A stretch of DNA of 64,000 nt from contig JAUWZD010000008.1 of assembly GCA_030615505.1 (NCBI GenBank), positions 104 through 64,103 on the forward strand. The letters are read 5' to 3'. Below the pieces are notes generated by a model, which saw only the letters and a list, made by a program, of their open reading frames with translations, did no database searches and was not told where the DNA came from. Shown in pieces: positions 589 through 38,801 of the stretch. The translations under genes and the position numbers were made by a program. The DNA comes from Spirochaetales bacterium. GTDB lineage: Bacteria > Spirochaetota > Spirochaetia > SZUA-6 > DRHE01. Each line of letters opens with the position of its first letter. Position 1 is the stretch's first letter.

Positions 589-667
589 TGAGCCGCCCCT
601 CTTATGAATTAATTATTACATAGTTTGATATAAATCAAGCTGTTTGTCAAATAATTTTGATAGTTTA

Positions 668-695
668 TTGACAAATTTATTTTACCAAATATACT
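668..695 (+). promoter_or_regulatory. Sigma70-like promoter (TTGACA-N16-TATACT) for the 726..13357 operon
   Basis: TTGACA at 668-673 and TATACT at 690-695 lie about 30 bp upstream of the ATG at 726. The direct repeat TCAAATAATTTT (649-660 and 699-710) and an imperfect palindrome flank it. Confidence 0.45.
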
Positions 696-725
696 GTATC
701 AAATAATTTTTGCACTGCAGTATAT

Positions 726-1370
726 ATGAAACAAATCCTTCTAATGATTATGCTGATTCTCATCTTCTCTTGTTCAGAGCAAAAAATAACTCATGAGCTT
801 TTAACACAATATGCTGAAGCGAAAACCCTATATATTAAAGGAAATCTTGACGAAGCTCTTCCACTATTTCTGGCAATAAGAGATAAGGCGCCTGAGTTCT
901 CAAGCAATTCCTTTATGTTGGGAAAACTCTATTTTTTTAAAAAAAATCATGAAGAGGCTGAAAAAACCTGGCTTGAAACGCTTGAGCAAAATCCGAAGCA
1001 TATAGATACAGTTAAGTGGCTTTCCAGACTCTACCTGATTCAGAATAAAGCAGAAGAAGCAGAAAGCTTAGTTGTCAAGGCCTTAAAAAACAGTTCCGAA
1101 GACCCGGAACTCCTGATCCTTCTGGGGAAAATAAAACGAGAGCAGAAGGATTTCAGCTTAGCAAATGAATTTTATATTAAGGCTCAATTTTTTAAAGAAA
1201 AACTCGCAGAAGCTTATATCGATTTAGCAGAAATATATGGGAAATTCGGTCTTGCTGGTAAGGCAGAACAAGAACTTGAAAAGGCATTATTTCTTCTTGG
1301 TGAAGAGAGCAGCCTGTATAAATCGATAGAATCTATTCTTGCCGGGTTAAAAGAGGAGACAAAACGGTGA
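726..1370 (+). CDS. TPR-repeat lipoprotein
   Basis: Signal peptide with lipobox (LILIFSC). TPR-like helical repeats in translation. Stop overlaps the next start. Confidence 0.75.
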   Translation: MKQILLMIMLILIFSCSEQKITHELLTQYAEAKTLYIKGNLDEALPLFLAIRDKAPEFSSNSFMLGKLYFFKKNHEEAEKTWLETLEQNPKHIDTVKWLSRLYLIQNKAEEAESLVVKALKNSSEDPELLILLGKIKREQKDFSLANEFYIKAQFFKEKLAEAYIDLAEIYGKFGLAGKAEQELEKALFLLGEESSLYKSIESILAGLKEETKR

Positions 1371-1825
1371 AATATACCTTTATTCTTGTTTTAACAATCC
1401 TTCTATCATCATGCATACTGTTCAAAAGCTCCAGGGTAGAAGATGTTTTTTATAATAAGAGCTATAGCAATGGAATATTAAACAGCAATATTATAATTCA
1501 AAATCTTACAGTCCAGAAAGATCTTGATCATGGAACTGTCAAAGCAAATGCCCAGTATATTCTTGGCCTGCTATCGGCTAAATATAATGAGGATTTAACT
1601 CAAAAAGCTTCCACCCTTTTTGCCCATATAATAATAAAAGAAGCCCCATTTATAAAAAATTATGAAACCCTCAACTCAGTCGCTTTGGAGATTAAACTGA
1701 CAGAAGATCAGGATAAAAAACCTGTGTTTATTTACCTATTAAGTGATGAAACCAAAAATACTATCTCCTCCTATAAATACCTCTATGAGATACTTGAAAG
1801 GCCATTCAAACAAATATACAAATGA
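1367..1825 (+). CDS. Lipoprotein, hypothetical
   Basis: N-terminus MKYTFILVLTILLSSC with a lipobox. 4-bp overlap with upstream and downstream genes. Confidence 0.65.
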   Translation: MKYTFILVLTILLSSCILFKSSRVEDVFYNKSYSNGILNSNIIIQNLTVQKDLDHGTVKANAQYILGLLSAKYNEDLTQKASTLFAHIIIKEAPFIKNYETLNSVALEIKLTEDQDKKPVFIYLLSDETKNTISSYKYLYEILERPFKQIYK

Positions 1826-3261
1826 AAGGTTTTACAGCAGGTTTCTTTATCCTCTTTCTTGGATTATCGCCCTTTCTATTAAATGGACAAAGCAGCCTTA
1901 ATGTTAAACTAAAGACAATTGATCTTGAGACATCTATTTTTAGAGCGCTTTATAATAGTAGTGACATTCAGTATATGCGCTTCGAGCAAAGAATAGCTGA
2001 TGAGAGAGTTAAATTGGGCTTAAGGCGATTTTTCCCTATCCTTGAACTTGGATTCACCCAGAGTGATTCTGTAACCTACGGCAGCCCGGACTCGCGAATA
2101 AAAAAGCTCTCAGTCGGCCTGGAACAACTTATCTATGATGGTGGGAAATTGGCTCAAAGTTATAAGAATCAAAAAAATGAGCTAAGGTTGAATTCATACT
2201 CATTAAACCTAAAAACAGAGGAGCTAATCTTCTCAGTGATAAATCTATACACGGAGATTCTCAGATTTCGACTGACAAAAGAGATACAGAGAGAAACCTT
2301 CCAAAATGCTCTAAAACAGCTTGAAATTGCACAAGTGGAACATAAACTGGGCATGATCACGGAACTGGACCTATTAGATATAAAATTGGCTGTTGCAGAT
2401 TTTAAGATAGACCTTGAAGAGACAGAACAGGAGGAGAGACTCCTTATGTTTCAATTTGCAAGGATTCTCGGCTCTCCACCGGAGGAGACTCCACTTCCAG
2501 CGGGATACATCAACCCTGAGTATTCAGGATTCATCCAATGCGAGGATGATGATCTCTCTTCCTTATCAGATTATTATACTGAAAAAGCAAAAAAAAATAG
2601 TCTTGAGTTTATGAAAAAAAGTCTTCAAGTATTACAGAGTAGAGAGATTTTGCGTCAAGCAAAATGGAGATGGCTGCCCCAAATTAAAGCTAACTTAGAT
2701 CTTAGCATGTCCGGTAACCGCTTTCCCCTTTCTGAACCAGGTTTTAGCTTTGCTTTAGAATTTGGATTCGATCTTCCCGTAACACCCATTCAAACAAGCA
2801 GCACTTTGGGCAAAAAAGATCCTACTGAGAGATCAACTGGACTAAGCGTAAGCACACAACCCATTACAAACCTTGAAGGGCTCCTCTCTAAAAGAATAGC
2901 TGAAATAAACCTATCAAAAACCTGCAGCGAGTTGGACGATTTCGAAACCGATACCCGTTTCACTATTAAAGAGAGCCTAGTAAAAATAGATAACCAAAGA
3001 GAAACACTTGCCCTTTTTAGAAAGAAGCTGAAAATCGAAAAGGCCAGGTTTAAAATCCAAAAATTAAGAATGGAATTAGGGGAGATTAAGAGAATTGACC
3101 TTTTAAACAGTCAAATTGAACTCGCTGAACACAAAATTGAAATATTGAGTAAAATTGTAGAATTGTACTCAGCTGAGATAGCTTTATTGAGAAGCAGCGG
3201 AGTATCAGGACTGAAAGATACGCACAAGCACATTGTTCTAAAAGAAGAAGTAAGCCTATGA
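1822..3261 (+). CDS. TolC-like outer membrane efflux protein (OMF family)
   Basis: Signal peptide. Two-repeat alpha-helical/coiled-coil organisation typical of outer membrane factors. First of the efflux components, overlapping its neighbours. Confidence 0.8.
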   Translation: MKGFTAGFFILFLGLSPFLLNGQSSLNVKLKTIDLETSIFRALYNSSDIQYMRFEQRIADERVKLGLRRFFPILELGFTQSDSVTYGSPDSRIKKLSVGLEQLIYDGGKLAQSYKNQKNELRLNSYSLNLKTEELIFSVINLYTEILRFRLTKEIQRETFQNALKQLEIAQVEHKLGMITELDLLDIKLAVADFKIDLEETEQEERLLMFQFARILGSPPEETPLPAGYINPEYSGFIQCEDDDLSSLSDYYTEKAKKNSLEFMKKSLQVLQSREILRQAKWRWLPQIKANLDLSMSGNRFPLSEPGFSFALEFGFDLPVTPIQTSSTLGKKDPTERSTGLSVSTQPITNLEGLLSKRIAEINLSKTCSELDDFETDTRFTIKESLVKIDNQRETLALFRKKLKIEKARFKIQKLRMELGEIKRIDLLNSQIELAEHKIEILSKIVELYSAEIALLRSSGVSGLKDTHKHIVLKEEVSL

Positions 3262-4592
3262 AAAAAAATGTATGCCTTTTGCTACTATTAATTGCTTTAT
3301 CATGCAAGAACGAAACAGAACAGAAAACAGAGGCAAAAAAAGAAATAATCAGTATATCGGTTGCGCAAAAAGAGATGATAAGCTCTGAGTTTCGTTCATT
3401 CGGTATGATTGTCTATTTCAATAAGGCTGATGTATTTCCAACCACAGAAGGCAATATAGAAAATATCTACGCTGAAGAGGGTATGGAGGTAGAGAAAGGG
3501 CAAATTCTGGCTAGGTTGATGCAGCAAAAACTTCTCATCAGGAAAGAAGAAGCAGAAGCTGAAATCGGATCAAAAAAAGCCCTTGTTGAGCTCTCTGAAG
3601 AAAAACTTAAGGAAGCTGTAAAAGCTATTGAAGCCAAACTTATCAATATTAATAATACAGAAGCAGAGCTTGAACAGAAAAAAGCGGAGTTTGAAAATAT
3701 ATCTAATATTTATGAGAACAAAAAGAAATTATTTGAAGTTGAAGGGGTTTCAAAGGAAGAACTTGAATCCATTAAAACTCAATACTTGAGTTATAAAACA
3801 AAACTCGCACAAACAGAAGGAGATTTGGAGATACGGAGAATCGGGTTTAGAGACTGTGACATCATAAAAGCTGGGTATGAAGTTCCTGAGGATTACGAAG
3901 CAAGGAAGAAAATCCAGGTAAAAATTAATACACGCATGCTTGAAGCAGACAAAAAGGTTTCTGAAGCAGAGCTGAATGCTGCTTTATCCAACTTAAGAAC
4001 AATCGATCTTTTCATCTCAGAAACGATTATACGTGCTCCAATATCAGGCATCATCGGTTCCCGCTATTTGGATATGGGAGAGAAGGCCACTCCCGAAAGC
4101 CAGCTTTTTACCATATTCAACATAAAAAAAGTGTACATACAGGTTGATGTGAGTGAAAAAGATCTCTCTCAGATTAGACTTGGCCAGAAGGCGCTAATAG
4201 ATATTGAGGGGGGAAAATCATATACAATCGAAGGAACAGTAAAGTTGATTTCTCCCTATATCAACCCGGAGACAAGAACGGCAAGAATTAAAATAGAAGC
4301 GGATAATACTCATAAATTGCTCTCTCCCGGGATGTTTGTACGAGTGAAAATTATAACCGGCTTACCGGAAGAGAAGATATTCATTCCGGAAGGCTCCGTG
4401 CTTACCGACCAGGAAGGTAATTTCTACCTCTTTTTAGTGAGAAATAACAGGCTGTTTAAAAAACAGGTGGAAGTGGGGACCAAACATGAAGATAGAATTA
4501 TCATAGTAGATGGCATCGAAGAAGGAGATTTAATATGCTTAAATCCCTCTGTATCTTTTAAAGACGGGACAGAAGTGGAGGTAATAAAATGA
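3258..4592 (+). CDS. Membrane fusion / periplasmic adaptor protein, HlyD family with a long alpha-hairpin
   Basis: Lipobox N-terminus. About 150-aa coiled-coil segment. C-terminal beta-barrel/MP motifs (IRAPISGIIG..., LISPYINPETRTARIKIEADN) typical of HlyD/RND adaptors. Confidence 0.85.
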   Translation: MKKNVCLLLLLIALSCKNETEQKTEAKKEIISISVAQKEMISSEFRSFGMIVYFNKADVFPTTEGNIENIYAEEGMEVEKGQILARLMQQKLLIRKEEAEAEIGSKKALVELSEEKLKEAVKAIEAKLININNTEAELEQKKAEFENISNIYENKKKLFEVEGVSKEELESIKTQYLSYKTKLAQTEGDLEIRRIGFRDCDIIKAGYEVPEDYEARKKIQVKINTRMLEADKKVSEAELNAALSNLRTIDLFISETIIRAPISGIIGSRYLDMGEKATPESQLFTIFNIKKVYIQVDVSEKDLSQIRLGQKALIDIEGGKSYTIEGTVKLISPYINPETRTARIKIEADNTHKLLSPGMFVRVKIITGLPEEKIFIPEGSVLTDQEGNFYLFLVRNNRLFKKQVEVGTKHEDRIIIVDGIEEGDLICLNPSVSFKDGTEVEVIK

Positions 4593-6040
4593 AACAATTT
4601 TTTTTATGCGCCGCAGTCTTATTCATTTGCAGCTGCAAGCTGTTTTTTTTTCCGGATACCTCAGGAATTAAAACATCTCCATCCGAACGGGATCAAATTT
4701 TGGGCTTGGATGAAGAGATTTATATTGATTTTGATTTCTCTGTTGACAGGCTTTCAGTTGAAAAAATCTTTTCAGTAGAAAGCCAGGGTGGAACAGCAGG
4801 CGGCAGTATCACATGGGATGGAGACACTCTAACCTTTACGCCGGAACCGGAACTCATCTTTGGTGCACGATACGTTTTAAATTGCAAGGGCACTATACAG
4901 GATAAAGAAGGCAACAGCTATAAATTGGATATTGAAATTCCCTTTTTTTATGGAAGTGATGAGGAGCAGCAGCCCCTGGTCGTATCAGTGAGCCCTTCAA
5001 GCGGACAGAAGGTTTCAGGCACAACACCTGTAGTGATAGGTTTTTCCAAGAAGATAGATACGCTCACTTTTAAAGATGGGTTTGATCTCTCACCGGATAC
5101 TGACCATGAAATTACCTGGAATCCGGCTAATACAATCGTAACGATTACTCCGGATGACCGGTGGCATAATCTCGTTTTATATACTGTAAGCCTGGATGAT
5201 GCGATAAAGGATACGAAAGGTATACCACTCTCAGTGGAAGTTGAAACGAGCTTTTTAGTTGAAGATGACGCCGATATACCGATGGTAGTAAGTGCCGGTC
5301 CGGCAGAAAACGACTGGGGCCCTCCCCCATTCAACCTGATAAGCACAGATCTGAATGATATCACCTACACGGACGCTATCCGAATCACTTTCTCAGAGGC
5401 CATGGAACAGGAAAAGACCGCTCAAGCCTTTTCTCTTACACCGGGTGTTACGGGGGAGACAGTCTGGATAGACGAAGAAAATCTAGTATTTATCCCGGAA
5501 ACAGGTTACGATATGAGCACGGAATATACCCTGGCTATTGAGAAAACGGCAGAAGATTTATACGGAAACCCGCTTTCAGATGACTATATTGTTCAATTTT
5601 CAACGGATCTCACCATACCGATACTGGAAGTATCCTCTATTAAGGCAATTAAAGACACAAGTACGATTGAGATGACTCCTCCCTATGATACTGCCAACCC
5701 GCAGGACTTAGATGACGGAGGCGGGATTCCTGATTATAACTATGAGTTCATATTCGAATTTTCTGAACCCTTCACCACGAGCGAGGAGAAATACCTGGTT
5801 CAAAGCAATATCAATATTTCCGTTGAGTTTGGTGATGTAAGCAGTCCCTATGCTATTGGCCACACCTGGCTGACCGATTATGAATTAAGCATCACTTTTA
5901 CAGGTTTTAATTCCGCTCTGGACTTAGAGTACTATTATATGCTTGAAATAAAAGGGGGGCAAAATGGTATTAAGAACAACGAAGGGAGTTATCTTCCTGA
6001 AGACATCAGGCAGCTTCTAAGAATAAGGATAGAAGAATGA
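4589..6040 (+). CDS. Lipoprotein with bacterial Ig-like (SbsA/Big_5-type) domain
   Basis: Lipobox FICSC. Motif ITFSEAMEQEKTAQAFSLTPGVTGETVWIDEENLVFIPETGYDMSTEYTLAIEKTAEDLYGNPL matches the Big_5 consensus. ATGA overlaps on both sides. Confidence 0.75.
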   Translation: MKQFFLCAAVLFICSCKLFFFPDTSGIKTSPSERDQILGLDEEIYIDFDFSVDRLSVEKIFSVESQGGTAGGSITWDGDTLTFTPEPELIFGARYVLNCKGTIQDKEGNSYKLDIEIPFFYGSDEEQQPLVVSVSPSSGQKVSGTTPVVIGFSKKIDTLTFKDGFDLSPDTDHEITWNPANTIVTITPDDRWHNLVLYTVSLDDAIKDTKGIPLSVEVETSFLVEDDADIPMVVSAGPAENDWGPPPFNLISTDLNDITYTDAIRITFSEAMEQEKTAQAFSLTPGVTGETVWIDEENLVFIPETGYDMSTEYTLAIEKTAEDLYGNPLSDDYIVQFSTDLTIPILEVSSIKAIKDTSTIEMTPPYDTANPQDLDDGGGIPDYNYEFIFEFSEPFTTSEEKYLVQSNINISVEFGDVSSPYAIGHTWLTDYELSITFTGFNSALDLEYYYMLEIKGGQNGIKNNEGSYLPEDIRQLLRIRIEE

Positions 6041-7461
6041 AAAAAATAATCCTTCTTATCATCGCCATACAAGTAATCCTGACAGGATGCCGTTTAATCC
6101 AGGATTTTATGAACATGAGCCCCCCGGAAATCCTCTCTTTCTCTCCGGATGACGAGTACGTAACGGCATCTGAGTTATCTGAGGTGTGCATCACATTTTC
6201 TCAAGGCATGGATAAAACAAAAACCGAAGGAGCCTTTTCCTTGACAGAAGGCTCAAGCAGCCTTGAAGGCGTGTTTTCCTGGAAAGAAAACAGACTATCC
6301 TTTGTGCCCTTTTCAGGTTTTAAAACAAACAAAACGTATACCATTCAAATTGAAACCACGGCGGAAGATCGATATGGGAACTCTTTAATGGATGAGTTCT
6401 ATTTTACTTTTTTCACAGGAGAGGAAAAAAACCGCCCTAGAATTGTAGGCCATTCCCCTGCTGCCGGGGCTGTAATTGCCAACCTCTTGGAACCTGTTAT
6501 TATTAATTTTTCAGAACCTGTTGACAAGGAGAGCCTTTACTCAAGCTTCAGTATATCACCCGAAGTCCAGGGAAATTTTACTTGGAATATTGATAACAGT
6601 GTGGTCACATTTACGCCTTTAGAATCCTACGTTGAGGGTGAAGAATACAGAGTGGAGATATCAACAGACCTGGAGGACCTGTCCGGCAACACTTTAGCCG
6701 AAGAATTTTCTTTCCGCTTCCAGGCGGGAGTAGAGACAGATCTCGTGATTAATTCACTAACCACTATGGCAGGCGGAACTGTCATCGAAGATACCAGCAT
6801 CATAACAGTGAATACGGGAATTGAGAAAGATGAAGTGTTTCTAATGGATTTCAATATTCCGGTACCTTTTGAACAAACAACCGGTATCTTTAATATTTCC
6901 CCATCCGCTAATTATAACCTCTACTGGGCTTTAGATTACGAGTCCTGTACTGTCAGCTTTACAGAATACCTGGAATACGGCCAGGTATATGAAATAGTCA
7001 TACTCGAGAATACCTACAGGATCAAGATCGATGGCCCCAATTCCTTGCCTCTTGAAGTTATTCGCCTGACGTTTTGCAATGACAAAACAGAAGTTCCACC
7101 TGTATTTACAACACTTAACCTTAATGATCCCTTCCCTGTTGTAGACTCAAGCACGTCCTGCCTGGATTTTTATATCCACCATGCAACAGGGGCAAGTTTA
7201 AACACTGGCTCCTTTATTGACGCCCTGTCCATTGATTCAGACGCTGTAAGCTTTACACTTCAAAGCATCGAAAATCCTGCAAATGCTTCAACCCCCCCAC
7301 CCAATCCGCCAATTGGTGCGGATGTAACCGTTATTCGAGTAAACTGTGAAGTAAGCGAAGTTCTCCCATCCGGCCTCGTTACCATATCCCTTGATACGGA
7401 TCTTAAAGATTCATTCAATAATACGCTTTTAGAAGAATATATCATGCAGGTAAATCATTGA
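6037..7461 (+). CDS. Lipoprotein with bacterial Ig-like (SbsA/Big_5-type) domain, paralog of 4589..6040
   Basis: Lipobox LTGC. Motif ITFSQGMDKTKTEGAFSLTEGSSSLEGVFSWKENRLSFVPFSGFKTNKTYTIQIETTAEDRYGNSL parallels the upstream gene. Confidence 0.75.
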   Translation: MKKIILLIIAIQVILTGCRLIQDFMNMSPPEILSFSPDDEYVTASELSEVCITFSQGMDKTKTEGAFSLTEGSSSLEGVFSWKENRLSFVPFSGFKTNKTYTIQIETTAEDRYGNSLMDEFYFTFFTGEEKNRPRIVGHSPAAGAVIANLLEPVIINFSEPVDKESLYSSFSISPEVQGNFTWNIDNSVVTFTPLESYVEGEEYRVEISTDLEDLSGNTLAEEFSFRFQAGVETDLVINSLTTMAGGTVIEDTSIITVNTGIEKDEVFLMDFNIPVPFEQTTGIFNISPSANYNLYWALDYESCTVSFTEYLEYGQVYEIVILENTYRIKIDGPNSLPLEVIRLTFCNDKTEVPPVFTTLNLNDPFPVVDSSTSCLDFYIHHATGASLNTGSFIDALSIDSDAVSFTLQSIENPANASTPPPNPPIGADVTVIRVNCEVSEVLPSGLVTISLDTDLKDSFNNTLLEEYIMQVNH

Positions 7462-10400
7462 AGCTGTTAGAAAGAGCCGCCGGACATCCCGTATCAGTAA
7501 TTATGGTATATACGGGTGTATTGCTTTTTGGTCTTGTTTCCCTTTTTAAGCTGAATGTTGAGCTACTGCCCACAATCAATATCCCGGTGGCCCATGTTAT
7601 AACAGAATACCCGAATATCCCCTCTTCAGAAGTGGAACAGCTTGTTACAATACCATTGGAAAATGCACTTTCATCTGTAAAAGGCGTTAAACAGCTAAAC
7701 TCAATCACAAAACAGGGAATATCTTCTGTTGATTTGAGATTTGACTGGGGAAGCAATATTGACAAGGTCGCAGTTGAAATTCGAGAGAAAATTGATTCCG
7801 CTTATCCTTTTCTGCCTTATGGGATTAAAAAGCCTCTTGTTTTTACAGAGGATCTATCTGATGTGCCGGTCATTACCCTTGCCGTTTTCCCAAAAGGAAA
7901 CAGCACAATAGAAGAGATTAGTGATACTGTAAAGAAGGAACTGAAGACCAGACTCCTCCAGATAAAAGGGGTTTCTGACTTGCGCATCGTAGGAGCCACA
8001 GAGCCTGAGATAAAGATCGTTGTTGATGCCTATAAGCTGTACGCGGCTAATATTCCGATTAGTCAAATCATTGAAACAGTAGGATCCTCTATCTATGAAT
8101 ACCCGGCAGGAAAAATCACAGAGGGTGATCTTGAGTACCTTGTTAAAGCTTCCACAGGGGTTACAAGCATAGAAGAGATTAAAAACCTGCCAATACTGAC
8201 AGGCACCGGCACAGTAGGTCTTCATATATCAGATCTTGCTGCAGTCTATCCCGGCATAAAGATGAGAACATCTTTTTTTCATATGAACGGGAAAGATGCC
8301 ATCGGTATATTTATAAATAAAACAGGAGACTCAGGAACTTTAAACGCCTCTGGCAATATCCTTAAAGATTTAGAGGATATTAAAGAGATATTTAGAAAAG
8401 AACTGTCCATCGAAGTAATAGAGGACAGATCAGATGAAATAAGGGCTTCAATAAAAAGCCTATTTATCGCGATTGCTCTTGGCATTATTGCCGCTTTTAT
8501 AGTGCTCTTTTTTTTCTTTAAAAAAAGGGCTATACCGCTTATTACGATTATATCAGTACCAGCTTCGATGACATCCGTTTTTTTATTCATGTACATAAGC
8601 AATATTTCTTTAAACATCATCTCTCTTTCCGGTATAGCTATTGGAATCGGTATGATCGTTGATAACAGTATCGTTGTATTGGAAAATCTGCTTAAAAACA
8701 GGGCTAAAAGCCCGAAAGAGATTGCTTCAAGCACTATAGAAATGGGCTCATCAACATTTGCCTCCACAGTCACAACCCTTTTAGTCTTTCTACCTGTTCT
8801 CTTTATACCCGGTATAACAGGCGCACTCTTTAAAGAACTTGCACTTACAATCAGCTTTTTAATAGCTTCATCATTTATTATTTCCATGACACTGGCTCCG
8901 GCACTGTACAGTCTCTTCCTCGCACAATTACCACCTGAACAGGATGGAATGGCTTTTAAAAGAACTCGATTGTCTTTACGTTATCGCCGTATGCTGTGCT
9001 TCATGATAAGAAAACCTGTATTCCCTATTTTTATTTTAGTGTTAGTAGCAGGCCTCGGATCTATGCTATTTTTAGCCTTGCCTAAAGAGATAATTCCGGA
9101 AGTAGACAGGGGAAAGCTCGAAGCCATTTTTTCTTTCCGCAGAGGAATTACAGCGGAAGATTCTTCTTCCCTGACAAAAGAAATTGAGATATCGCTTTTA
9201 GAGCTTGGTGAGGCAGATATTATTTATTCTGAGGCAGGATTCGATAAGACTTCTGTGAAGGATAAGGCAAGCAGCGGGAGAGACTTAGCTACAGTCAGGA
9301 CCGGGATTATTCTGAATAAAAAACGAAGCGCATCCATTTGGGAAGCAAAGTCATTAATAGCAGGACACCTGGAAAATGAAGGCGATTTTAACTTTCAGGT
9401 AAAAATACCTGATGACGTGATTAAGAAGCTTTTAAACGCTGAAGGCTCGATTCAATTTCTGCTTACAGGAACAGACAGGGAAAAACTTATTTATGATGCA
9501 GAAGCTATTGTAAAGCAGGCACGTGAAAAAAATCTGATAAGCATCGCCGATATTGATACAAAAAAAGAAAGCCCTGAGATTCACCTTAATCTAAAGAGCG
9601 ATTCCCTGGCTTACAGCAGTCTGCAGCCATCAGGCATACTTAATGCCATGTCAAGTTCAATAAGAGGAACTGTTGCCACAAAACTTAAAACAGATGAAGG
9701 TGAAACAGATATCAGAGTCAGATTAAGAAAAGAGCAGACAAGCACAATAGAAAAGCTGGAAAAACTGAAAGTGAAATCTCCAAATGGATTCCTGGAAATA
9801 GGCAATCTTGGAGATTTATCAAAAGATCTTGCTTTCAGTGAAATTTTCAGAAGAAACAGAAAAATGTCTGTTGAAATTACATTCCTGCCTCAACCCGGAA
9901 GAGAGAAGATCCTGAAAAATTATCTTCTCTCCATTCAGAACGAATATAACACAACAAGTTCACAAACAGCCCTTGAACGCAGCTTTAAAGAAATCGGTAT
10001 GGTTTTTATCTTAGCTGTTATTCTAATGTATTTAATTCTCGGAGCGCAATTTGAGTCGTTTACAGTACCCCTTCTACTGCTTATATCATTACCTCTATCG
10101 CTTTTTGGAAGCCTGCTCTTGCTTTTTATTACAGGAAAAAGTATCAATATCAACTCATTCTTGGGAATTCTTATTCTTCTGGGAACCACAATCAATACAT
10201 CTATCATTCTGTGTGCCTCTTTCGGAAAAGGAAGTTTTCCTGAGATTATCAGCGGAAGCATCTCCAGGCTAAAGCCCATCCTGGCCACTGTTTGCACAAC
10301 CATCTTTGCTCTTCTTCCTATTGCGGTGAATCCATCTGCAGAGAACACGATCCAGAGTAACACAGCAATCTCTGTAGTCGGCGGGCTTTTTTCAGGAACA

Positions 10401-10463
10401 CTTACAACGCTTATTATCTTTCCGGTCATATATTTCTACTTAAAAAGAAAAAGCCACCATTAA
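7458..10463 (+). CDS. RND-superfamily efflux permease (AcrB/CzcA-like, 12 TM)
   Basis: 1001 aa. TM4 motif GIAIGIGMIVDNSIVVLEN. Large periplasmic loops. Typical RND size and topology. Confidence 0.9.
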   Translation: MKLLERAAGHPVSVIMVYTGVLLFGLVSLFKLNVELLPTINIPVAHVITEYPNIPSSEVEQLVTIPLENALSSVKGVKQLNSITKQGISSVDLRFDWGSNIDKVAVEIREKIDSAYPFLPYGIKKPLVFTEDLSDVPVITLAVFPKGNSTIEEISDTVKKELKTRLLQIKGVSDLRIVGATEPEIKIVVDAYKLYAANIPISQIIETVGSSIYEYPAGKITEGDLEYLVKASTGVTSIEEIKNLPILTGTGTVGLHISDLAAVYPGIKMRTSFFHMNGKDAIGIFINKTGDSGTLNASGNILKDLEDIKEIFRKELSIEVIEDRSDEIRASIKSLFIAIALGIIAAFIVLFFFFKKRAIPLITIISVPASMTSVFLFMYISNISLNIISLSGIAIGIGMIVDNSIVVLENLLKNRAKSPKEIASSTIEMGSSTFASTVTTLLVFLPVLFIPGITGALFKELALTISFLIASSFIISMTLAPALYSLFLAQLPPEQDGMAFKRTRLSLRYRRMLCFMIRKPVFPIFILVLVAGLGSMLFLALPKEIIPEVDRGKLEAIFSFRRGITAEDSSSLTKEIEISLLELGEADIIYSEAGFDKTSVKDKASSGRDLATVRTGIILNKKRSASIWEAKSLIAGHLENEGDFNFQVKIPDDVIKKLLNAEGSIQFLLTGTDREKLIYDAEAIVKQAREKNLISIADIDTKKESPEIHLNLKSDSLAYSSLQPSGILNAMSSSIRGTVATKLKTDEGETDIRVRLRKEQTSTIEKLEKLKVKSPNGFLEIGNLGDLSKDLAFSEIFRRNRKMSVEITFLPQPGREKILKNYLLSIQNEYNTTSSQTALERSFKEIGMVFILAVILMYLILGAQFESFTVPLLLLISLPLSLFGSLLLLFITGKSININSFLGILILLGTTINTSIILCASFGKGSFPEIISGSISRLKPILATVCTTIFALLPIAVNPSAENTIQSNTAISVVGGLFSGTLTTLIIFPVIYFYLKRKSHH

Positions 10464-10477
10464 AGGCGAGATAGCCC

Positions 10478-13357
10478 ATGGCCTTTCATCAAAGCTGGAC
10501 ATCGAAACCTGTACGGGTTCTATTTATTCTCATAAGCTTTACAATGCTCCTTTTCCTTTACAGCAGGACAATACCTCTAGGCTATCTTCCCTCGGTCCAG
10601 AGGAAATCCATTCTTATCAGGATTGAACATAAAGGCGCTTTTGAAAATCAGATTGAAAAAGTGATTACAAACCCGGTGGAGAGAGAAATATCCAGGATAC
10701 GCGGCATAAAAGAGATTTTTTCCGTATCGGAACAGGAAAAAGCTCGCATCAATATCAGCTTTTTTGCAGAAACAGACCTTGATAAAGCTTACTTAAGGGT
10801 TCGAGAGGCCGTTGATAGGGTGTATGCCGCCCTGCCGGACGGCGTACAAAGACCGATCATAGCAAAAAGTGATATCAATTCAAGGCCGGTTTTTATAGCT
10901 GCTTTTGAAAATAAAGGATATCTGGCTGAAGACTATCTAAAACGGCTATATGAAAACATAAAAGGCACAGGGGAGATCGATATAGGCGGTGGAGTTAAAA
11001 TGGAGGTCCAGATATCCTTTTATCCTGACAAAACGGCACAAGCCAAAATATCTGTGCCTCAAATATTGAACAGCATCCGGGGAAACAACATTGTAGGCGG
11101 GTTTGGGCGCGAGACGGAGATCCCTCACATTATCGATGCCAGGCTTAAAAATATTGAAGAAGTAAGAGCATTACGTGTAACTCGTGACATAACCCTTGGA
11201 GAGATTGCTCAAGTCAGGCTGGAAAAAGCTAAGAAGGAAAGCATTGGACGCGTTAATGGCAAAGAAAAAATCATCGTTTATGTCCATGAGGCAGGCGACG
11301 CTAACACGGTAAATCTCTGCAGAAAGCTAAAATGTTTGACACTAAAGATCCCTGAAGGGATGATACTTTATAATTATGGAGAGAAAATTGAGAAGTCTCT
11401 TGAGGAAATTCTTATTTCGATTATTTCCGGAATTGTATTTGTAACAGCTCTCACGTTCATATTTTTAAAGAAAATATATCCGGCCCTGCTTGTCAGCCTG
11501 AACATCCCCTTTTCCGTTCTTTTTACTGCGGCATGCCTCAATTCCTTTGGATATGAATTAAACATCATGACCTTATCCGGTATTGCCATTGGTATAGGAT
11601 TGGTTATTGACTCAGGTATAGTCTATGTGGAAGAGTTCTTTGCCTCTAAAGGCGATCTACAAAAAACCTTACAAGGATCATCCCATCCAATTTTATTTTC
11701 ATCGTGCACAACCATAGCTGTCTTTATTCCTCTTCTTTTTGCCCAAAGGGAGCTTACTGATCAGTTCGGAGGACTGGCGATTGCGGTTTCTTCTTCTATT
11801 ATAGCTTCAGCAATTTTTGTCTTTCTTTTTATGCCGGCTTTTCTTTCTTTGTTTTTTAAAAGAGATTTAAAATCAGAAAATTATCTCAAAGCAAAATCTT
11901 CTCCGCTTATATCAGGCATCCTTAAAAGAGCCTTTTTCCTTACAAGCAGATTTCGCCCTGTTTTTATTGGACTTACACTCATCCTAGTAGCTGCATCAGG
12001 ATTCATTCTTCATAACCTAAGGCGACAAAATTTTAACTTAAACACAGGAAACACTGTATCTTTTAAGTTAGAGTATCCAAGCGGAACAACACTTGATCAA
12101 GTTTTTAACACGGCTTCTGAGCTTGAGGATTATATAACATCGCTCAATGGGATAAAGACAAGCGCCAGTAAATATGAAAAAGAGCGAGCCTCTTTTGATT
12201 TGACATTAAATGACAATACAGAACAAAAACCGATTATTAAAAAATTGAAAAGCCGGGAACACTACTACAAAAATATCTTTTTCTATTTTCCGGAGAAATC
12301 AGATGATGAAGATTCATTCGATGTTATTTTAACAGGAAAGGGAAACACTAAACTCCGGGAGTTGTCAAAATCCGTATCTGAAGAAATAAGGAAAGATCCT
12401 GCTGTCACAGGCATCATTTTCCACTATAAAGATGTGCTCCCTTCAAAGCAGGTAGCAATAAATCTTCACGATTCTGCAGGACTTGGAGTAAATCCGAAAG
12501 ATCTATATTCACATCTATACTGGTCTCTCTCCGGCCCTGTTGCTTCAAAATGGAATCCACCCGGACAAACAGAATCCGGTAATGCATACGCCGATATAAG
12601 GCTCTTTGCTGGAAAACTTCAGACAGCAGCATTTGCTGATCTTATGAATATAAAATTTACAGGCCCGGATGGTAAGGCGGTCGAATTAAAAGACATGGCA
12701 TCCTTCTCTGAAAAACAAGAGACAGGAAGGATATACCACTCAGGCCGGCAGAGAAGCGTCAGTTTTTCGGTTAGAACCAGGAAAGCGGATAAGTTTAAAA
12801 TTCTACAGAGGGCAAACAGGATTATTTCTGATTTCCCATTTCCCGGAGGCTACAGAGCGGAAGCCGGCCGTACAGAAAAAGAAGAAGAGAGACTTAAAGT
12901 TTCTTCGGCAGTCAGTCTCTCTTTGTCAATATTGCTTATCCTGATCATATTGGTTTTTCAATTTGAAGGAATAAGAATACCCCTTATTATAATGTCTCAA
13001 ATACCCTTATCATTTATCCTGCCGGTTCTACTTTTAAAAATATTAAATCTTTCCCTTTCAATGCCCGTTATGATTGGGCTTATTCTTACAGCTGGAATAT
13101 CTGTAAACAACTGCATCTTAGTTTTTGACCGCCTAAAAGGCCGCATATTAAGTGGTATATCTGTATATACAGCACTCGAGGCTAAATTTAAAGCCATGCT
13201 GATAGCCTCACTTACAACAGTCATGAGCGTACTGCCTCTTTTTTTCGTTGGTAGAATCGGAGCGGGTGTTCTTGCTCCGCTGTCACTCACTATATCCGCA
13301 GGTATTACCGGATCTGTTATTTTTCTGCTGATTAGCCTGCCTGTTCTGTTCAAATAA
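10478..13357 (+). CDS. Second, divergent RND-superfamily permease
   Basis: 959 aa. TM4 motif GIAIGIGLVIDSGIVYVEE. Lies 14 bp downstream of the first permease. Confidence 0.85.
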   Translation: MAFHQSWTSKPVRVLFILISFTMLLFLYSRTIPLGYLPSVQRKSILIRIEHKGAFENQIEKVITNPVEREISRIRGIKEIFSVSEQEKARINISFFAETDLDKAYLRVREAVDRVYAALPDGVQRPIIAKSDINSRPVFIAAFENKGYLAEDYLKRLYENIKGTGEIDIGGGVKMEVQISFYPDKTAQAKISVPQILNSIRGNNIVGGFGRETEIPHIIDARLKNIEEVRALRVTRDITLGEIAQVRLEKAKKESIGRVNGKEKIIVYVHEAGDANTVNLCRKLKCLTLKIPEGMILYNYGEKIEKSLEEILISIISGIVFVTALTFIFLKKIYPALLVSLNIPFSVLFTAACLNSFGYELNIMTLSGIAIGIGLVIDSGIVYVEEFFASKGDLQKTLQGSSHPILFSSCTTIAVFIPLLFAQRELTDQFGGLAIAVSSSIIASAIFVFLFMPAFLSLFFKRDLKSENYLKAKSSPLISGILKRAFFLTSRFRPVFIGLTLILVAASGFILHNLRRQNFNLNTGNTVSFKLEYPSGTTLDQVFNTASELEDYITSLNGIKTSASKYEKERASFDLTLNDNTEQKPIIKKLKSREHYYKNIFFYFPEKSDDEDSFDVILTGKGNTKLRELSKSVSEEIRKDPAVTGIIFHYKDVLPSKQVAINLHDSAGLGVNPKDLYSHLYWSLSGPVASKWNPPGQTESGNAYADIRLFAGKLQTAAFADLMNIKFTGPDGKAVELKDMASFSEKQETGRIYHSGRQRSVSFSVRTRKADKFKILQRANRIISDFPFPGGYRAEAGRTEKEEERLKVSSAVSLSLSILLILIILVFQFEGIRIPLIIMSQIPLSFILPVLLLKILNLSLSMPVMIGLILTAGISVNNCILVFDRLKGRILSGISVYTALEAKFKAMLIASLTTVMSVLPLFFVGRIGAGVLAPLSLTISAGITGSVIFLLISLPVLFK

Positions 13358-13362
13358 GCCGC

Positions 13363-14802
13363 TTAAGTTGCTTCAATCCCAAGTATACTATCAAGGCGCT
13401 CTTTCAGCCTGCCTGAGGCATTATCGCGTTTCGCTTCAAGATATGCCCTTACTATCTCGTTTTTTTTTGCCTCTTGTAACATCAACACAGCGGCCATCTG
13501 ATAAACATTATCAGGAGTAGAGAGGAGGTCCATAACCGGATCCAGGATATTTACAATTCCTGTCGAAAGTCTTCTATAAATGGCATCTAACTCATGTCCT
13601 AAGAGGATCTTTTCTCCGTCACTCTTCGATAGTCCTAACAGCCTTCCCAGTTCTATTCTTGTCTCTTCAGCATACAGGGTTCCCGGGGCCAGTAAGATGC
13701 ATTTCTCAAGCACATTTCGGGCCGTGCCAATATTATAATTCCCCTCACTTTTTTTCATCCCCTGCCAGAGGTGATAATAATAGGCGGGAAGCCCGCGGAA
13801 AGATGCTTCTAAATCTATATAAAACTTTAAATCATCTATCCCTGCATTGCCCTGCTCAAGACTCGATGAAAGGACCAAATACCTGTGGAATTCCATATCT
13901 TCATCGAATTTAAAGCTCGTTAAAAGGCTGTTTGCTTCTACCCAGATCCCGGAGACATAGGCTTTAAGCCCTCTTATTAGAGACTTTCCCTGCTTTCGTG
14001 GATTCCAGGAGGTATCTGAAAGCTTTTCTTCAAGACAAATGAGTCTCTCAATTTGCTGCCCGGAGGATATCAATCCATTGTATCTCTGATACTCCAGATC
14101 TTTAAAAGCAGCTAAAATTCCTTCGTTTATGCGGCCAAGCTTTTCATATATGGCCGATTCCTTTATGCCAAGATTCGTCTCATACCCGAATTTAGCCTCA
14201 TATTGCTTTATCACACCGAGAACATCCTCATATTTTTCCTGCTCAAGTAACAGAACGATATAGGCATTCATATCTTCCCTGTTCATGTTATTTTTCTGCT
14301 CCTCCCAACCTTCCTGAAAAACTTTTAAGGCCTCTTCGTCCTCTCCAATTTCTAAAAGGCACTTTGCCTTTGTAAAGAGTACACCAATTTTATCTTTAAT
14401 TTTAAAGCCTAACGCCTTATCAGCATACTCTAATCCTTTTTTGTACTCTTTCTTTCGATAGGAAAGCTCTGCGAGGTTTGTAAAAAGAAGGAATTTTAAA
14501 TTCTTATCTTTATTCTTTCTAACGAGTTTTAGGCCCTGTTCTAAATAAGCTGACGCTTTTTGCATATCGCCGGAAGCCAGCAACATGCCTCCGATATTAA
14601 CCTTTAATGCCAGCTTGTCCGGATACTGCTGATCGAGTGAGAGTAGAGAATTAAAGAGCTCAAGCCCTTTTTCATTTTTCATTGCTTCATTAAACTTATC
14701 TTCAAATTCATTATCCCCGGCTTTACATGAGATAACTAAGAATAAAATGAGGCAAATTACACATAAGTATATATGTGTCCGCATATAGGAACTCCTTTGC
14801 AA
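13363..14802 (-). CDS. TPR-repeat lipoprotein
   Basis: Lipobox LVISC. Multiple TPR-like repeats. Convergent with the efflux operon. Confidence 0.7.
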   Translation of the reverse strand: MQRSSYMRTHIYLCVICLILFLVISCKAGDNEFEDKFNEAMKNEKGLELFNSLLSLDQQYPDKLALKVNIGGMLLASGDMQKASAYLEQGLKLVRKNKDKNLKFLLFTNLAELSYRKKEYKKGLEYADKALGFKIKDKIGVLFTKAKCLLEIGEDEEALKVFQEGWEEQKNNMNREDMNAYIVLLLEQEKYEDVLGVIKQYEAKFGYETNLGIKESAIYEKLGRINEGILAAFKDLEYQRYNGLISSGQQIERLICLEEKLSDTSWNPRKQGKSLIRGLKAYVSGIWVEANSLLTSFKFDEDMEFHRYLVLSSSLEQGNAGIDDLKFYIDLEASFRGLPAYYYHLWQGMKKSEGNYNIGTARNVLEKCILLAPGTLYAEETRIELGRLLGLSKSDGEKILLGHELDAIYRRLSTGIVNILDPVMDLLSTPDNVYQMAAVLMLQEAKKNEIVRAYLEAKRDNASGRLKERLDSILGIEAT

Positions 14803-14978
14803 ATCATACTTTTTCTGCTTTATGGAAAAAGCTAAAATTGGCTTAACTATATCATCCCTTATTTAATTAACGCAACAATTGTTGCAGTTCTTAAAGCATC
14901 GGGGCTTGAACCTTATATCATAACACTCTATGGAGCAGCAAAAGCGCTAAAAGTAAGATTAAAAAAACCAGCTCTTAT

Positions 14979-15383
14979 TTATATATACTTCACCATGCTT
15001 TCAACATCCAGTCCAATATGTTCTGCCATCAAGTCAAAGTAATAGTCAGCATGTACGAGAAGGGCATTCACATAGAGAGCAGAAGCAGCAATAAACATAT
15101 CGGAATGCGGAACTGTAATTCCATTGCTGCGTAAGGTATATGCTTTTTCAGATTAATAATCCCACAAGGATTTTGTGGATTCTATAAATACCAGATTATC
15201 CAGTCTTATTTTCAGTCTTTCATACTCGCTTTTTGTTTTGGTACCTGCAAGGAGCTCAAGCTTAATCATGCCATTTATTGCAACTTCATTTTCCTTTAGA
15301 AAACGATCGATCTTGTCCTTTATTACAGGGTTATAATCTTTTCTTAAGGAAAAAATCCAAGCTGAAGTGTCAATGAGAATCAT
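14979..15383 (-). pseudogene. vapC: PIN-domain toxin VapC, frameshifted
   Basis: ORF 15153..15383 gives the N-terminal half (MILIDTSAWI...). The C-terminal half (ITVPHSDMFIAASALYVNALLVHADYYFDLMAEHIGLDVESMVKYI) reads in another frame at 14979..15149. Together they make about 131 aa. Confidence 0.7.
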
Positions 15384-15595
15384 GAATTTCCTGTATCCTC
15401 TCTATCCTTATTAAGGGATTCCAGTGTAATATCAAGATCAAATGTGCCGAGTTCTTTGCGAAGGATTTCGCGATTTTTTTTCCTGATAATTTCACGAAGT
15501 CCTTCTTCGATAACTGCCTTCTTGGTTTTTAATTGAGTAACCTGCAATGCAGTGTTTATTAGGTTATCATCTATAACTACTGTAGTTTTACTCAT
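15380..15595 (-). CDS. vapB: VapB-family antitoxin (Rv0623/DUF2191-like)
   Basis: MSKTTVVIDDNLINTALQVTQLKTKKAVIEEGLREII... matches this antitoxin family. GGAG sits 9 bp upstream of the ATG at 15595. 4-bp overlap with vapC. The 106-aa track ORF is an over-extension. Confidence 0.75.
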   Translation of the reverse strand: MSKTTVVIDDNLINTALQVTQLKTKKAVIEEGLREIIRKKNREILRKELGTFDLDITLESLNKDREDTGNS

Positions 15596-15607
15596 AAGCT
15601 TCTCCTG

Positions 15608-15655
15608 GTATGTATTATTCATACATACTAATGTATATAAAATAAATATGTATGT
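15608..15655. promoter_or_regulatory. Putative vapBC operator / divergent promoter with four ATGTAT/ATACAT half-sites
   Basis: GTATGTAttattcaTACATACtaATGTATataaaataaatATGTATG. Perfect inverted repeat at 15608-15628. Confidence 0.45.
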
Positions 15656-15687
15656 CAAAAAAGTGACACATCTCAAGGAAGTATCAT

Positions 15688-16062
15688 TTGAGTGTGGCAC
15701 TATCTATTAAGGGTCCCGGCTTGCAGTCTGAAATGGTTGAAGAAGGGAAAGCACAGGCCAGGCTTGAGAAAGAGGCCCCGAAAAAGAAGCATTATAATAT
15801 TCAAATCAAGATCAAATTAAAGGATGACTGCGTTTTCAAATCGGTCAGGGCCTTTATGGTGCTAAAAAATTTGGGTGAGACCAATAAAATAGTCAATACA
15901 GACCCCGAAGTCAGAGACATAGAAGACGAGAAATTTGATCAATCGTTTACGGTTTTCTTAACCACCAAAGAGAATGAAAAAAAGATCAGAAAGGCTGTCG
16001 AATCTGTTTCTGATGTGGAAAGCGTGGTTATCAAGGCTGTCAAAGGTCTTTCAAGGTTTTAA
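15688..16062 (+). CDS. Hypothetical protein (possibly the N-terminal remnant of a disrupted sensor gene)
   Basis: 124-aa ORF divergent from vapB. No recognisable domain. It ends exactly where PAS homology begins in another frame. Confidence 0.35.
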   Translation: MSVALSIKGPGLQSEMVEEGKAQARLEKEAPKKKHYNIQIKIKLKDDCVFKSVRAFMVLKNLGETNKIVNTDPEVRDIEDEKFDQSFTVFLTTKENEKKIRKAVESVSDVESVVIKAVKGLSRF

Positions 16063-16291
16063 AGATTTCTGCTTGTTTGATGTGGTTAAAAGGGTCTGGC
16101 AAACCGGCAACCCCGAGCATCCCCCTGTTTTTCAGTATAAGGATAAGAGCAAAATCGGATGGCTGGATAGTTATGTCATAAAACTGCCTTCCGGTGAAAT
16201 AGTTGTTGTTTATAATGATGTTACCGATCGCAAGCAAGCAGAGGAAGAGAAAAACTCCAGGATGAAAAAAAAGAGTGTTAAAACGATCTAA
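16060..16291 (+). pseudogene. PAS-domain fragment (C-terminal half of a PAS fold only)
   Basis: FDVVKRVWQTGNPEHPPVFQYKDKSKIGWLDSYVIKLPSGEIVVVYNDVTDRKQAEEE matches the PAS C-terminal half. There is no N-terminal half and no output domain. Confidence 0.5.
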
Positions 16292-17186
16292 AAAGAAACC
16301 TTAATTTCCTTTTCCATATTCAATAAGGATGAAAGAGAAAGTATTTTATCTACCAAAGACGGATTTAAAAACACTCCTTTGGGAACCAGCAATAATCCAT
16401 TTTTTAAGGCTATTTCATCAAGCAAATACATTCCCGGTTTGAGATCCTGAATAGCCACACTATTGGATTTTTTAAACTGTATGTTCACATTTACACTCAT
16501 AAGGCTGCAAAATACCCGGGCAATCTGTCCGTCATAAAATGATCCGATATTCCCTTCAATAAATTCCAGAGCCTGCCCCGGCATTTTTTTCTCTCTGAAG
16601 ATTAGATTGTCATAGTCATTTGCAATTCTGACGATGCGCGCGCTCCAGGTGGAATTTTAACACTCCTTAATCCGTCTGGGAACCCTCTACCGTTAATTCT
16701 TTCATGATGGGAGCGAATAACTGCCTCGATCCTTTTTAAGTTTTTAACTGTACTGATCAACTCCTGGCCAACGAGAGGATGTTGAAGGTATATCTGTTTT
16801 TCATTTTTAGTGAAATCATTCACTTTTTTTTCAAAAAGTGCAGTTCCTGCGCCGATGAGGCCCAGATCATGAAGAAGTGCTCCATAATATATGTCTTCTT
16901 GTTCCTCCTTACTAAATTCTAATTTTTCGGTGATCAATTTTGAAAGCTCAGCAACCCGCTTCGAATGTTCGCTCAGGAATTTATGATAATGTGAGAGGAT
17001 ACCTGAAAGAAGATAGATAATTTCACTGAAATTTTGCTTGAGAACGCCGCTGATCTTTCTCAAATGACTAACCACTTTTTCTATTGTTCCACCCCTGAGC
17101 ATATAAATCGGTTGATGTCCGGCATTAGCATACAGAAGATTATAATTGTTCAAATCCAGCAGGCAGGCTGAAAAGCAGGCGTCCAA
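16288..17186 (-). pseudogene. HD-GYP phosphodiesterase remnant split across two frames, with a PP2C/SpoIIE-like tail at its N-terminus
   Basis: 16602..17186 carries YANAGHQPIYMLRGG (PP2C-like), then ALLHDLG...HHERINGRGFPDGL. The VADxYDA segment is degenerate and ends in a stop. 16288..16584 resumes in another frame with ALEFIEGNIGSFYDGQIARVF (HD-GYP C-terminus). Compare the intact copy at 55886..57055. Confidence 0.55.
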
Positions 17187-17852: not shown

Positions 17853-17902
17853 GTCGCATAAGCTCTTCAGAAAAAACACTAAAGAGCTGCTTCTCATGCT
17901 TC

Positions 17903-27071: not shown

Positions 27072-27118
27072 GTATAAACATTTATACCTCTATAAGCAAA
27101 TCTGTAAAACTAAAAAAA

Positions 27119-27508: not shown

Positions 27509-27528
27509 ATTACATTGTCGGAAGTTTA

Positions 27529-38728: not shown

Positions 38729-38801
38729 AGCCACCTGCCCGATTCGAACGGGCGACCCCGAGATTACAAGTCACGTGCTCTACCAGCTGAGCTAAGGTGG
38801 C
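38729..38801 (-). tRNA. tRNA-Thr (anticodon TGT inferred), no encoded CCA
   Basis: Cloverleaf GCCACCT / D-stem GCTC / anticodon loop CTTGTAA / T-arm GCCCGTTCGAATCGGGC / AGGTGGC. One U-U mismatch in the anticodon stem. Confidence 0.75.

Follow-up and report, generated by a model that had tools for sequence, protein, structure and literature searches.

Paired permeases of the RND (resistance-nodulation-division) superfamily have been described in MdtBC, MuxBC and SmeJK of HAE-1 clade B, in which two adjacent and tightly coupled paralogous genes for proteins of the AcrB fold lie behind one adaptor gene. The subunits of MdtBC are reportedly functionally asymmetric, as described by Kim, Nagore and Nikaido in 2010. 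Here we analyse a pair of RND permease genes, P1 and P2, found at the end of an eight-gene module in DNA from a Spirochaetales bacterium (assembly GCA_030615505.1, contig JAUWZD010000008.1, positions 104 to 64,103 of the forward strand). This whole stretch of 64,000 nucleotides is referred to below as the window, and all coordinates are positions within it unless another sequence is named. The two genes form a conserved pair which appears to be independent of the clade B duplication, and their products would both belong to a radiation of the AcrB family that lacks the lysine K940 of transmembrane helix 10 (TM10).

All described heterotrimeric RND pumps have been attributed to a single HAE-1 Clade B duplication; MdtB and MdtC, which are about 50% identical, are the products of one proteobacterial duplication (PMC10872679). 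The relay of HAE-1 pumps is defined as D407, D408, K940, R971 and T978 (AcrB numbering, used throughout), and the TM4 motif G403xxxD407xxxxxxE414 is common to HAE-1 and the heavy-metal efflux (HME) pumps (PMC2891726). A Burkholderia RND clade of uncertain function is without K940 (Perrin 2010; PMC2891726). Bodilis 2024 equates this clade with its own Clade H, the proposed HAE-4 family, which accounts for 20% of Gram-negative RND sequences and is enriched in saline habitats (marine samples; PMC10872679). For SecDF, a review names an Asp in TM4 and an Arg in TM11 as the essential pair (PMC8277102). Among spirochaetes, a cluster with two acrB genes has been noted, and left uncharacterised, in Leptospira interrogans serovar Hardjo (LIH_14115/14120 region; PMC4956267).

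Relay residues of P1 and P2

P1 (7458..10463, + strand) is a protein of 1001 aa with a TTG start that overlaps the upstream stop codon, and P2 (10478..13357, +) is a protein of 959 aa with an ATG start. Both match the Pfam family ACR_tran (PF00873; cut-off 28 bits), P1 with 556 bits over profile positions 8–1020 of 1021 and P2 with 387 bits over positions 9–1017. The relay positions were assigned from a MAFFT alignment in which P1 and P2 were set against AcrB, MdtB, MdtC and CusA of E. coli, and which was repeated with 120 + 120 homologues; invariant residues in TM4 (G403, D407, I410, V411 and E414) and TM10 (G930 and G936) served as anchors. The relay residues are thereby anchored by homology in proteins with E-values < 1e-100, and chance alignment is of no concern.

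Four blocks, each present in the sequence on the + strand, carry the TM4 and TM10 positions. In TM4 these are GMIVDNSIVVLEN of P1 (aa 398–410, nt 8649..8687) and GLVIDSGIVYVEE of P2 (aa 374–386, nt 11597..11635), and in TM10 they are LGTTINTSIILC of P1 (aa 908–919, nt 10179..10214), where Asn replaces AcrB K940, and LTAGISVNNCILVF of P2 (aa 870–883, nt 13085..13126). AcrB D407 is matched by D402 in P1 and D378 in P2, whereas D408 is replaced by N403 and S379, and K940 by N913 and N877 (followed in P2 by N878). R971 corresponds to R937 in P1 and, conservatively, to K903 in P2, while T978 corresponds to T944 and A910, respectively. In the same alignment AcrB, MdtB and MdtC display D-D, K, R and T at these positions and CusA displays D-A, E (E939), R and T. 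Neither TM4 nor TM10 of P1 and P2 contains any further Asp, Glu, Lys or Arg on inspection of the alignment, such that TM10 is without a positive charge of either kind. A preliminary description of the locus, made from the sequence alone, had read a single TM4 Asp and no TM10 Lys in both permeases, against D-D in the AcrB type and D-A in the CusA type, and the alignment confirms each of these readings. The possibility that the D-D pair and the TM10 Lys are present but offset had been named beforehand as the one that would overturn them; both were looked for in the alignments and neither was found.

The same pattern is seen in a table of 79 P1-family and 28 P2-family sequences. Position 407 is Asp throughout the P1 family (79/79) and in 27/28 of the P2 family, and position 940 is Asn in 77/79 and 28/28, respectively. 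Position 408 is Asn in 75 of the 79 P1-family sequences and varies in the P2 family, where Ala (14), Ser (7), Asn (4) and Thr (2) are found among the 28 and Gly is also listed. At position 971 the P1 family has predominantly Arg (71, with His in 5; n=79) and the P2 family predominantly Lys (23, with Arg in 2; n=28) within a range of K, R, V, I and N, while position 978 is Thr in 72/79 of the P1 family and Ala (16) or Ser (11) in the 28 P2-family members. The TM4 motif is kept in both, with G403 in 79/79 and 28/28 and Glu or Asp at position 414 in 72/79 and 28/28 sequences of the P1 and P2 families, respectively. Within the membrane, D407 and R/K971 are the only charges that both families conserve, with E414 and E893 located at helix ends. 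The charged D408–K940 pair has in effect been exchanged for uncharged residues, leaving the TM4 Asp and the TM11 Arg/Lys in place.

Placement within the RND superfamily

The preliminary description had set the pair apart from both HAE-1 and HME pumps, and the profile scores agree, in that P1 and P2 fall far short of the NCBIfam cut-offs for HAE-1 in the strict sense (TIGR00915; 307 and 180 bits against 940) and for HME (TIGR00914; 289 and 168 bits against 701). Indeed, both permeases stay below every curated NCBIfam subfamily cut-off. The Phe cluster of the AcrB distal pocket is not conserved in P1 or P2. The Met triad of CusA (M573/M623/M672) and its E939 and K984 are missing from both families, the corresponding positions being N, I or M and non-Met, and the equivalent of CzcA D402 is Gly in 79/79 of the P1 family and 24/28 of the P2 family. 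Membership of HME was rejected on the missing Met triad, E939 and K984 together with the TIGR00914 scores. The pair shares with AcrB its fold, subdomain plan and tripartite context, and with CusA the single TM4 Asp, but CusA pairs this residue with E939 and K984.

The described K940-less clade (the uncertain-function group of Perrin 2010, equivalent to Godoy Group 4 and to Clade H/HAE-4) keeps G403xxxD407xxxxxxE414, R971 and T978 and has no TM10 Lys. P1 has precisely this set of residues, and P2 keeps D407 with K971 and A978. In an approximate neighbour-joining tree P1 and P2 are placed among sequences with D-N-N-R, D-D-S/T-R and D-N-S-R at the relay positions, and outside the DDKR clade which holds AcrB, MdtB and MdtC. 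Both permeases can be assigned, at the level of sequence, to a K940-less radiation of the AcrB family, although the described Burkholderia members keep D-D in TM4 whereas the second Asp has also gone from P1 and P2, a comparison drawn by description and not within one tree. No published account of the D-N / N-N variant was found, the literature describing K940-less clades with D-D only, and the five best PDB matches to the TM4–TM6 segment of P1 are all D-D, none of them carrying the D-N / N-N signature. Neither P1 nor P2 groups with MdtB or MdtC in the approximate tree and their relay is different, which suggests that the pair is an independent case outside the Clade B duplication.

A conserved permease pair in spirochaetes

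P1 and P2 appear to have the full AcrB architecture of 12 TM helices and two large periplasmic loops, as judged from a fold model for P2 and from alignment for P1. The AF2 model of P2 (pLDDT 87.6, pTM 0.83) superimposes on AcrB, AcrD and AdeJ with Foldseek TM-scores of 0.85–0.87. All of the porter and docking subdomains are aligned in both proteins, with PN2, DN and PC1 of P2 being slightly shorter. The two permeases are 24% identical over their full length, and P2 belongs to a long monophyletic branch of the tree apart from the P1 lineage. A recent tandem duplication was rejected on the basis of this low identity and the age of the monophyletic P2 lineage, which has a counterpart in Leptospira.

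The gene order of the module (TPR, small lipoprotein, OEP, MFP, Big_5, Big_5, RND1, RND2) is kept in about 15 Spirochaetia loci. The carriers are the cultured Sediminispirochaeta bajacaliforniensis, two complete Spirochaetia chromosomes and about a dozen further metagenome-assembled genomes (MAGs); in one related locus the module is split into two sub-operons. Junctions in the related loci are formed by 4-nt overlaps, and RND1 and RND2 are separated or overlapped by 0 to 31 nt. In every locus with enough flank, P2-type genes are found solely directly downstream of P1-type genes, and a scan of one genome per species recovered P2-type genes only in records of Spirochaetia, Spirochaetales and Spirochaetaceae plus one MAG labelled Planctomycetota. 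An orthologue of a convergent TPR gene faces RND2 in nine of the related loci. The MdtB/MdtC-like arrangement proposed in the preliminary description is thus a real pair, conserved across related spirochaete loci: two adjacent paralogous permease genes accompany one adaptor, with a 14-nt gap here and overlaps in the orthologous loci, across about 15 genomes.

P1 and P2 orthologues encoded on the same contigs have diverged from the window's proteins at an equal pace (71/68, 58/58, 55/54, 54/53, 53/50 and 42/41% identity for P1/P2), and P2 is therefore under purifying selection. The distribution of the conserved positions differs between the two. The TM segments are 66/62% identical in P1 and 57/58% in P2, whereas the PC1/PC2 cleft subdomains are 43–51% identical in P2 and 36–37% in P1, a comparison resting on seven orthologue pairs. 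The relay Asp is missing from about 10 of about 140 P2-like representatives, and two P2 loci have V or I at residue 971. In the P2 orthologue of the MAG GCA_964397655.1 (12988–15882 of that locus), Thr replaces the relay Asp and the TM11 cation is gone (GLLVTSCILYGE / FADNFPTIL), while its P1 partner is intact.

A more distant counterpart is found on the Leptospira interrogans plasmid pl_URK_4a (1–12910), which encodes an Ig-like giant protein with Big_5 repeats, a lipoprotein, a TPR protein, an MFP, two permeases (RNDa and RNDb) and a hypothetical protein. RNDa is nearest to P1 (28% identity) and RNDb to P2 (24%; 243 vs 177 bits). The TPR, MFP and Ig-like proteins are likewise homologous to those of the window, such that the module is homologous component by component. 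The relay of RNDa reads D-S / D-N / Val, with D-S in TM4 and Asp at the K940 position, and RNDb is without the TM4 Asp. The layout and the RNDa–P1 and RNDb–P2 correspondences are shared by the two systems; they differ in their low identity (24–28%), in having one giant Ig-like protein as opposed to two of 480 aa, and in being plasmid- or island-borne as opposed to located in the core chromosome. We infer that the pl_URK_4a cluster is the one noted in serovar Hardjo (PMC4956267). Plasmids from L. noguchii and L. weilii give similar matches as well. Given the homologous Leptospira pair, the P1/P2 split either predates the deep spirochaete lineages or was exchanged across them.

Distribution of the relay signature

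The preliminary description had called the signature non-canonical and had taken it to point away from a classical drug/H+ antiporter. Comparison with a wider set of relatives supports neither a signature peculiar to this locus nor one that speaks against a cation-coupled efflux pump. D-N...N-N...R is present in nearly all of the 120 best P1 relatives, down to 28% identity, the hosts including Clostridia, Bacillota, Fodinibius, Anoxybacter and others. Among 126 aligned sequences of the P2 set (120 matches and 6 references), 74 are D-N-N-R and 17 are D-D-K-R. A HMMER search with P2 over 1.84 billion representatives returned about 140 full-length top matches, almost all of which combine the Asp with Asn-Asn; position 408 in these is N, S, A, T or G, and Lys occurs at position 940 in one only. 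Carriers also occur in Fusobacteriota, Aminicenantes and Ignavibacteriales, and in cultured Ilyobacter, Pontibacillus and Treponema. In annotated plasmid records, Ilyobacter polytropus and Pontibacillus have D-N-N-N-R-T and Treponema saccharophilum has D-N-N-N-R-S. Parabacteroides, Legionella, Sphingobium, S. meliloti (NolG), Clostridium butyricum and Photobacterium have D-D-K, and Priestia (a Priestia megaterium plasmid) has D-D-T. The Firmicutes, which the Bodilis 2024 survey left out (PMC10872679), hold many D-N-N-R proteins in the present sampling. Overall, across several hundred relatives sampled from many phyla, no signature is as frequent as TM4 Asp with TM10 Asn-Asn and TM11 Arg.

Intermediate relays were also observed: D-D may be combined with Thr or Ser at position 940 and D-N with Ser at the same position, and Brevibacillus has D-F-N-N. 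These variants suggest that the D-D-K and D-N-N types are linked by a graded series.

The Asp motif and the TM11 Arg are intact, and CusA, which is an H+ antiporter, likewise has a single TM4 Asp. One Asp together with a TM11 Arg is enough for a functioning cation relay, CusA and SecDF being examples, and the signature therefore provides no argument against cation antiport. The likeness to SecDF extends to the single TM4 Asp, but its periplasmic architecture differs and it operates without an adaptor or channel.

Organisation of the locus and accessory proteins

The module comprises eight same-strand open reading frames (ORFs; 726–13357, +) with a 4-nt start/stop overlap at every junction except that between P1 and P2, where the 14-nt gap contains the ribosome-binding-like sequence AGGCGAG. 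The best sigma-70-like promoter match (TTGACA-16-TATACT; 668..695, +) lies 30 nt ahead of the first gene and agrees with the consensus at 11/12 positions. It is no more than a match to the consensus, since the region's total of such matches is not above that of shuffled sequences. Apart from this site, promoter and terminator scans of the region were at background level, and an Rfam scan of the module gave no match.

Lipoboxes are present in six products. The first gene (726..1370, +) encodes a lipoprotein of 214 aa with tetratricopeptide repeats (Pfam TPR families) and the lipobox IFSC, with an orthologue at the same position in about 15 loci and 26% identity (E 8e-16) to the TPR protein of the Leptospira module. 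It is followed by a lipoprotein of 152 aa (1367..1825, +; lipobox LSSC) which belongs to no Pfam or NCBIfam family and has just 2 database matches in a word search, yet its position is kept in most related spirochaete loci with enough upstream flank; the AF2 model of this protein is unusable (pLDDT 54.7). The TolC-like outer-membrane factor (OMF; 479 aa; 1822..3261, +) matches Pfam OEP in two repeats with 136 bits and falls under the NCBIfam TolC and NodT cut-offs. The periplasmic adaptor, or membrane fusion protein (MFP; 444 aa; 3258..4592, +), is a lipoprotein which scores 205 bits with TIGR01730 RND_mfp (cut-off 94.9) and also matches HlyD_D23. Its long alpha-hairpin insert comprises about 150 residues, compared with about 60 in E. 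coli MdtA, and is common to the homologues from Sediminispirochaeta and Leptospira. For its two permease genes the operon has a single MFP and a single OMF. Between the adaptor and P1 lie two lipoproteins with immunoglobulin-like (Ig-like) repeats, Big_5 protein a (483 aa; 4589..6040, +; Pfam Big_5 114 bits in 3 stretches) and Big_5 protein b (474 aa; 6037..7461, +; lipobox LTGC; Big_5 112 bits). They are paralogues of conserved position with homology to the large Ig-like protein encoded in the Leptospira module, and protein b also has a weak CopC-like match (E 1.8e-4, under the cut-off). Facing P2, a convergent gene (13363..14802, −) that travels with the module encodes a TPR lipoprotein (Pfam TPR) of 479 aa with the lipobox VISC, which has no similarity to the TPR lipoprotein at the start of the module.

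Elsewhere the window consists of core spirochaete chromosome, with mreBCD, PBP2, rodA, RNase P RNA, rpoD, dnaG, mltG, flagellin and ffh. The G+C content is 37–42% over the RND module and its immediate surroundings (window 1–18000), compared with 45–52% in the adjacent core genes mreB, PBP2, rpoD and dnaG (18000–42000); the low value of the module could reflect membrane and lipoprotein composition or a foreign origin. Beyond the convergent gene, the stretch 15380–17769 contains short ORFs with isolated domains: a VapB antitoxin (15380–15700, −), a lone CheA P2 domain (15688–16062, +), and an HD_5 ORF (16602–17186, −) that overlaps at its end with a PAS ORF of the opposite strand (17146–17769, +). 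These look like gene remnants or mis-framed genes. Further along, a protein of 1325 aa (32889–36866, −) combines FlgD Ig-like, CHU_C (resembling a type IX secretion signal) and Big_13 domains with a C-terminal OmpA domain. The window also contains a bacterial RNase P class A RNA (27113–27509, −; 273 bits) and two tRNA genes (38580–38661 and 38729–38801, −).

Discussion

We consider it reasonably probable, taking the account as a whole, that the locus is a translationally coupled eight-gene operon with a convergent TPR gene and encodes a tripartite RND export machine of a spirochaete type. By analogy with MdtBC, we infer that P1 and P2 would form a heterotrimer of independent origin in which P1 is the energy-coupling subunit. 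The two systems differ in that MdtB and MdtC carry D-D, K, R and T, whereas P1 and P2 are less identical to one another, lack K940, fall outside the DDKR clade and are accompanied by Ig-like and TPR lipoproteins.

In the K940-less radiation, residues without charge (Asn or a small side chain in TM4, Asn-Asn in TM10) take the place of the D408–K940 ion pair of HAE-1 pumps, which leaves the TM4 Asp (AcrB D407) and the TM11 Arg/Lys (AcrB R971) as the only buried charges. In the mechanism that we propose, one cation, H+ or possibly Na+, would bind to the single Asp in each protomer cycle with the TM11 cation as counter-charge, and its binding would drive an AcrB-like conformational cycle from the TM domain to the porter domain. 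Both permeases may occupy one heterotrimer, like MdtB2C. P1, the relay of which is strictly conserved, would then provide the energy coupling, and P2, in which the relay is relaxed and dispensable in some lineages while PC1/PC2 is better conserved, would be a specialised substrate-handling or structural protomer. A mixed trimer of this kind fits the single adaptor and channel, the overlapping or nearly overlapping junctions, and the conservation of both relay and domains. As the substrate, an amphiphilic organic compound or a component of the envelope is more probable than a metal. Several points weigh against such a division of labour. The heterotrimer is proposed from synteny, coupling and the MdtBC precedent, the asymmetry in domain conservation between P1 and P2 is modest and comes from few orthologue pairs, and most P2 orthologues keep the Asp and a TM11 Lys, so that P2 may well couple ions itself.

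The permeases might instead form two separate homotrimeric pumps which handle different substrates and share the single adaptor and outer-membrane channel, much as AcrB, AcrD and MdtF share TolC in E. coli. Each has a complete AcrB fold with docking-domain loops, and the TM4 Asp and TM11 Lys/Arg kept in most P2 orthologues could make P2 self-sufficient. However, in the loci with enough flank P2-type genes occur only directly downstream of P1-type genes, usually with overlapping stop and start codons, the P2 lineages that have lost the relay Asp could not energise a homotrimer, and the only described paired RND genes (MdtBC, MuxBC and SmeJK) form heterotrimers (PMC10872679), such that we regard two homotrimers as unlikely, if worth serious consideration. 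We give hardly any credence at all to the idea that P2 is a decaying, non-functional duplicate whose odd TM4 residue reflects drift. The variability at position 408 and the imperfect retention of the TM11 cation and T978 could be read in that way, but P2 is an intact ORF with a confident AF2 model, an old monophyletic lineage and a Leptospira counterpart, its conservation keeps step with that of P1 down to 33–40% identity, and N940 and D407 are present in 28/28 and 27/28 sequences, respectively; decay to a pseudogene was rejected on this conservation. A heavy-metal exporter of HME-like type, suggested by the resemblance of D-A/D-S in TM4 (and D-A is frequent among P2 orthologues) to CusA and by the weak CopC-like match in Big_5 protein b, has very little likelihood in view of the missing E939, K984 and Met triad, the low TIGR00914 scores and the lack of a CzcA D402 equivalent. 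CopC and Big_5 are both Ig-like folds, and the weak match is probably at the level of the fold.

As to the coupling ion, Asp / Asn / Asn-Asn / Thr could constitute a Na+ site, with this pump and the K940-less radiation in general driven by the sodium-motive force. The loss of Lys and the gain of three carbonyl or amide side chains around one carboxylate is chemistry that would suit Na+ coordination, and Ilyobacter, Pontibacillus and Fodinibius halophilus are examples of carriers that are marine or halophilic anaerobes. VexEF, a member of the saline-enriched HAE-4 clade, requires Na+ (PMC10872679), and the eukaryotic RND protein DISP1 reportedly binds Na+ in its TM domain. On the other side, VexF is tied to the signature by description only and not at the residue level, the signature is also present in organisms that are not saline, and a single Asp with an Arg counter-charge suffices for H+ coupling in SecDF and CusA. 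Furthermore, surfactin export by Bacillus SwrC, a candidate member of the class, is reported to be sensitive to inhibitors of the proton gradient (PMC12096827). We therefore consider sodium coupling across the radiation quite unlikely. A bolder proposal, which we view as a long shot, is that the locus represents a new class of envelope-spanning RND machine, in which a Na+-coupled (Asp / Asn / Asn-Asn) energising protomer and a relay-relaxed partner export an envelope component as opposed to drugs, and the Ig-like and TPR lipoproteins and long-hairpin adaptor brace the pump across a wide, flagellum-containing periplasm. That the Big_5 and TPR lipoproteins have such a bracing role across the spirochaete periplasm is itself speculation.

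The relay signature alone is no discovery, as it marks a large AcrB-like branch which is documented and mechanistically almost unstudied. What is distinctive is the module, conserved phylum-wide in spirochaetes from Sediminispirochaeta to the Leptospira plasmids, which joins an RND pump with Ig-like and TPR lipoproteins. The pair would mean that paired RND permeases have arisen a second time, independently of the MdtBC-type duplication. Whether one protomer type can energise a mixed trimer could be tested with the natural variants in which the partner subunit has lost its relay Asp, and the module provides a tractable system for the question of H+ versus Na+ in K940-less pumps.

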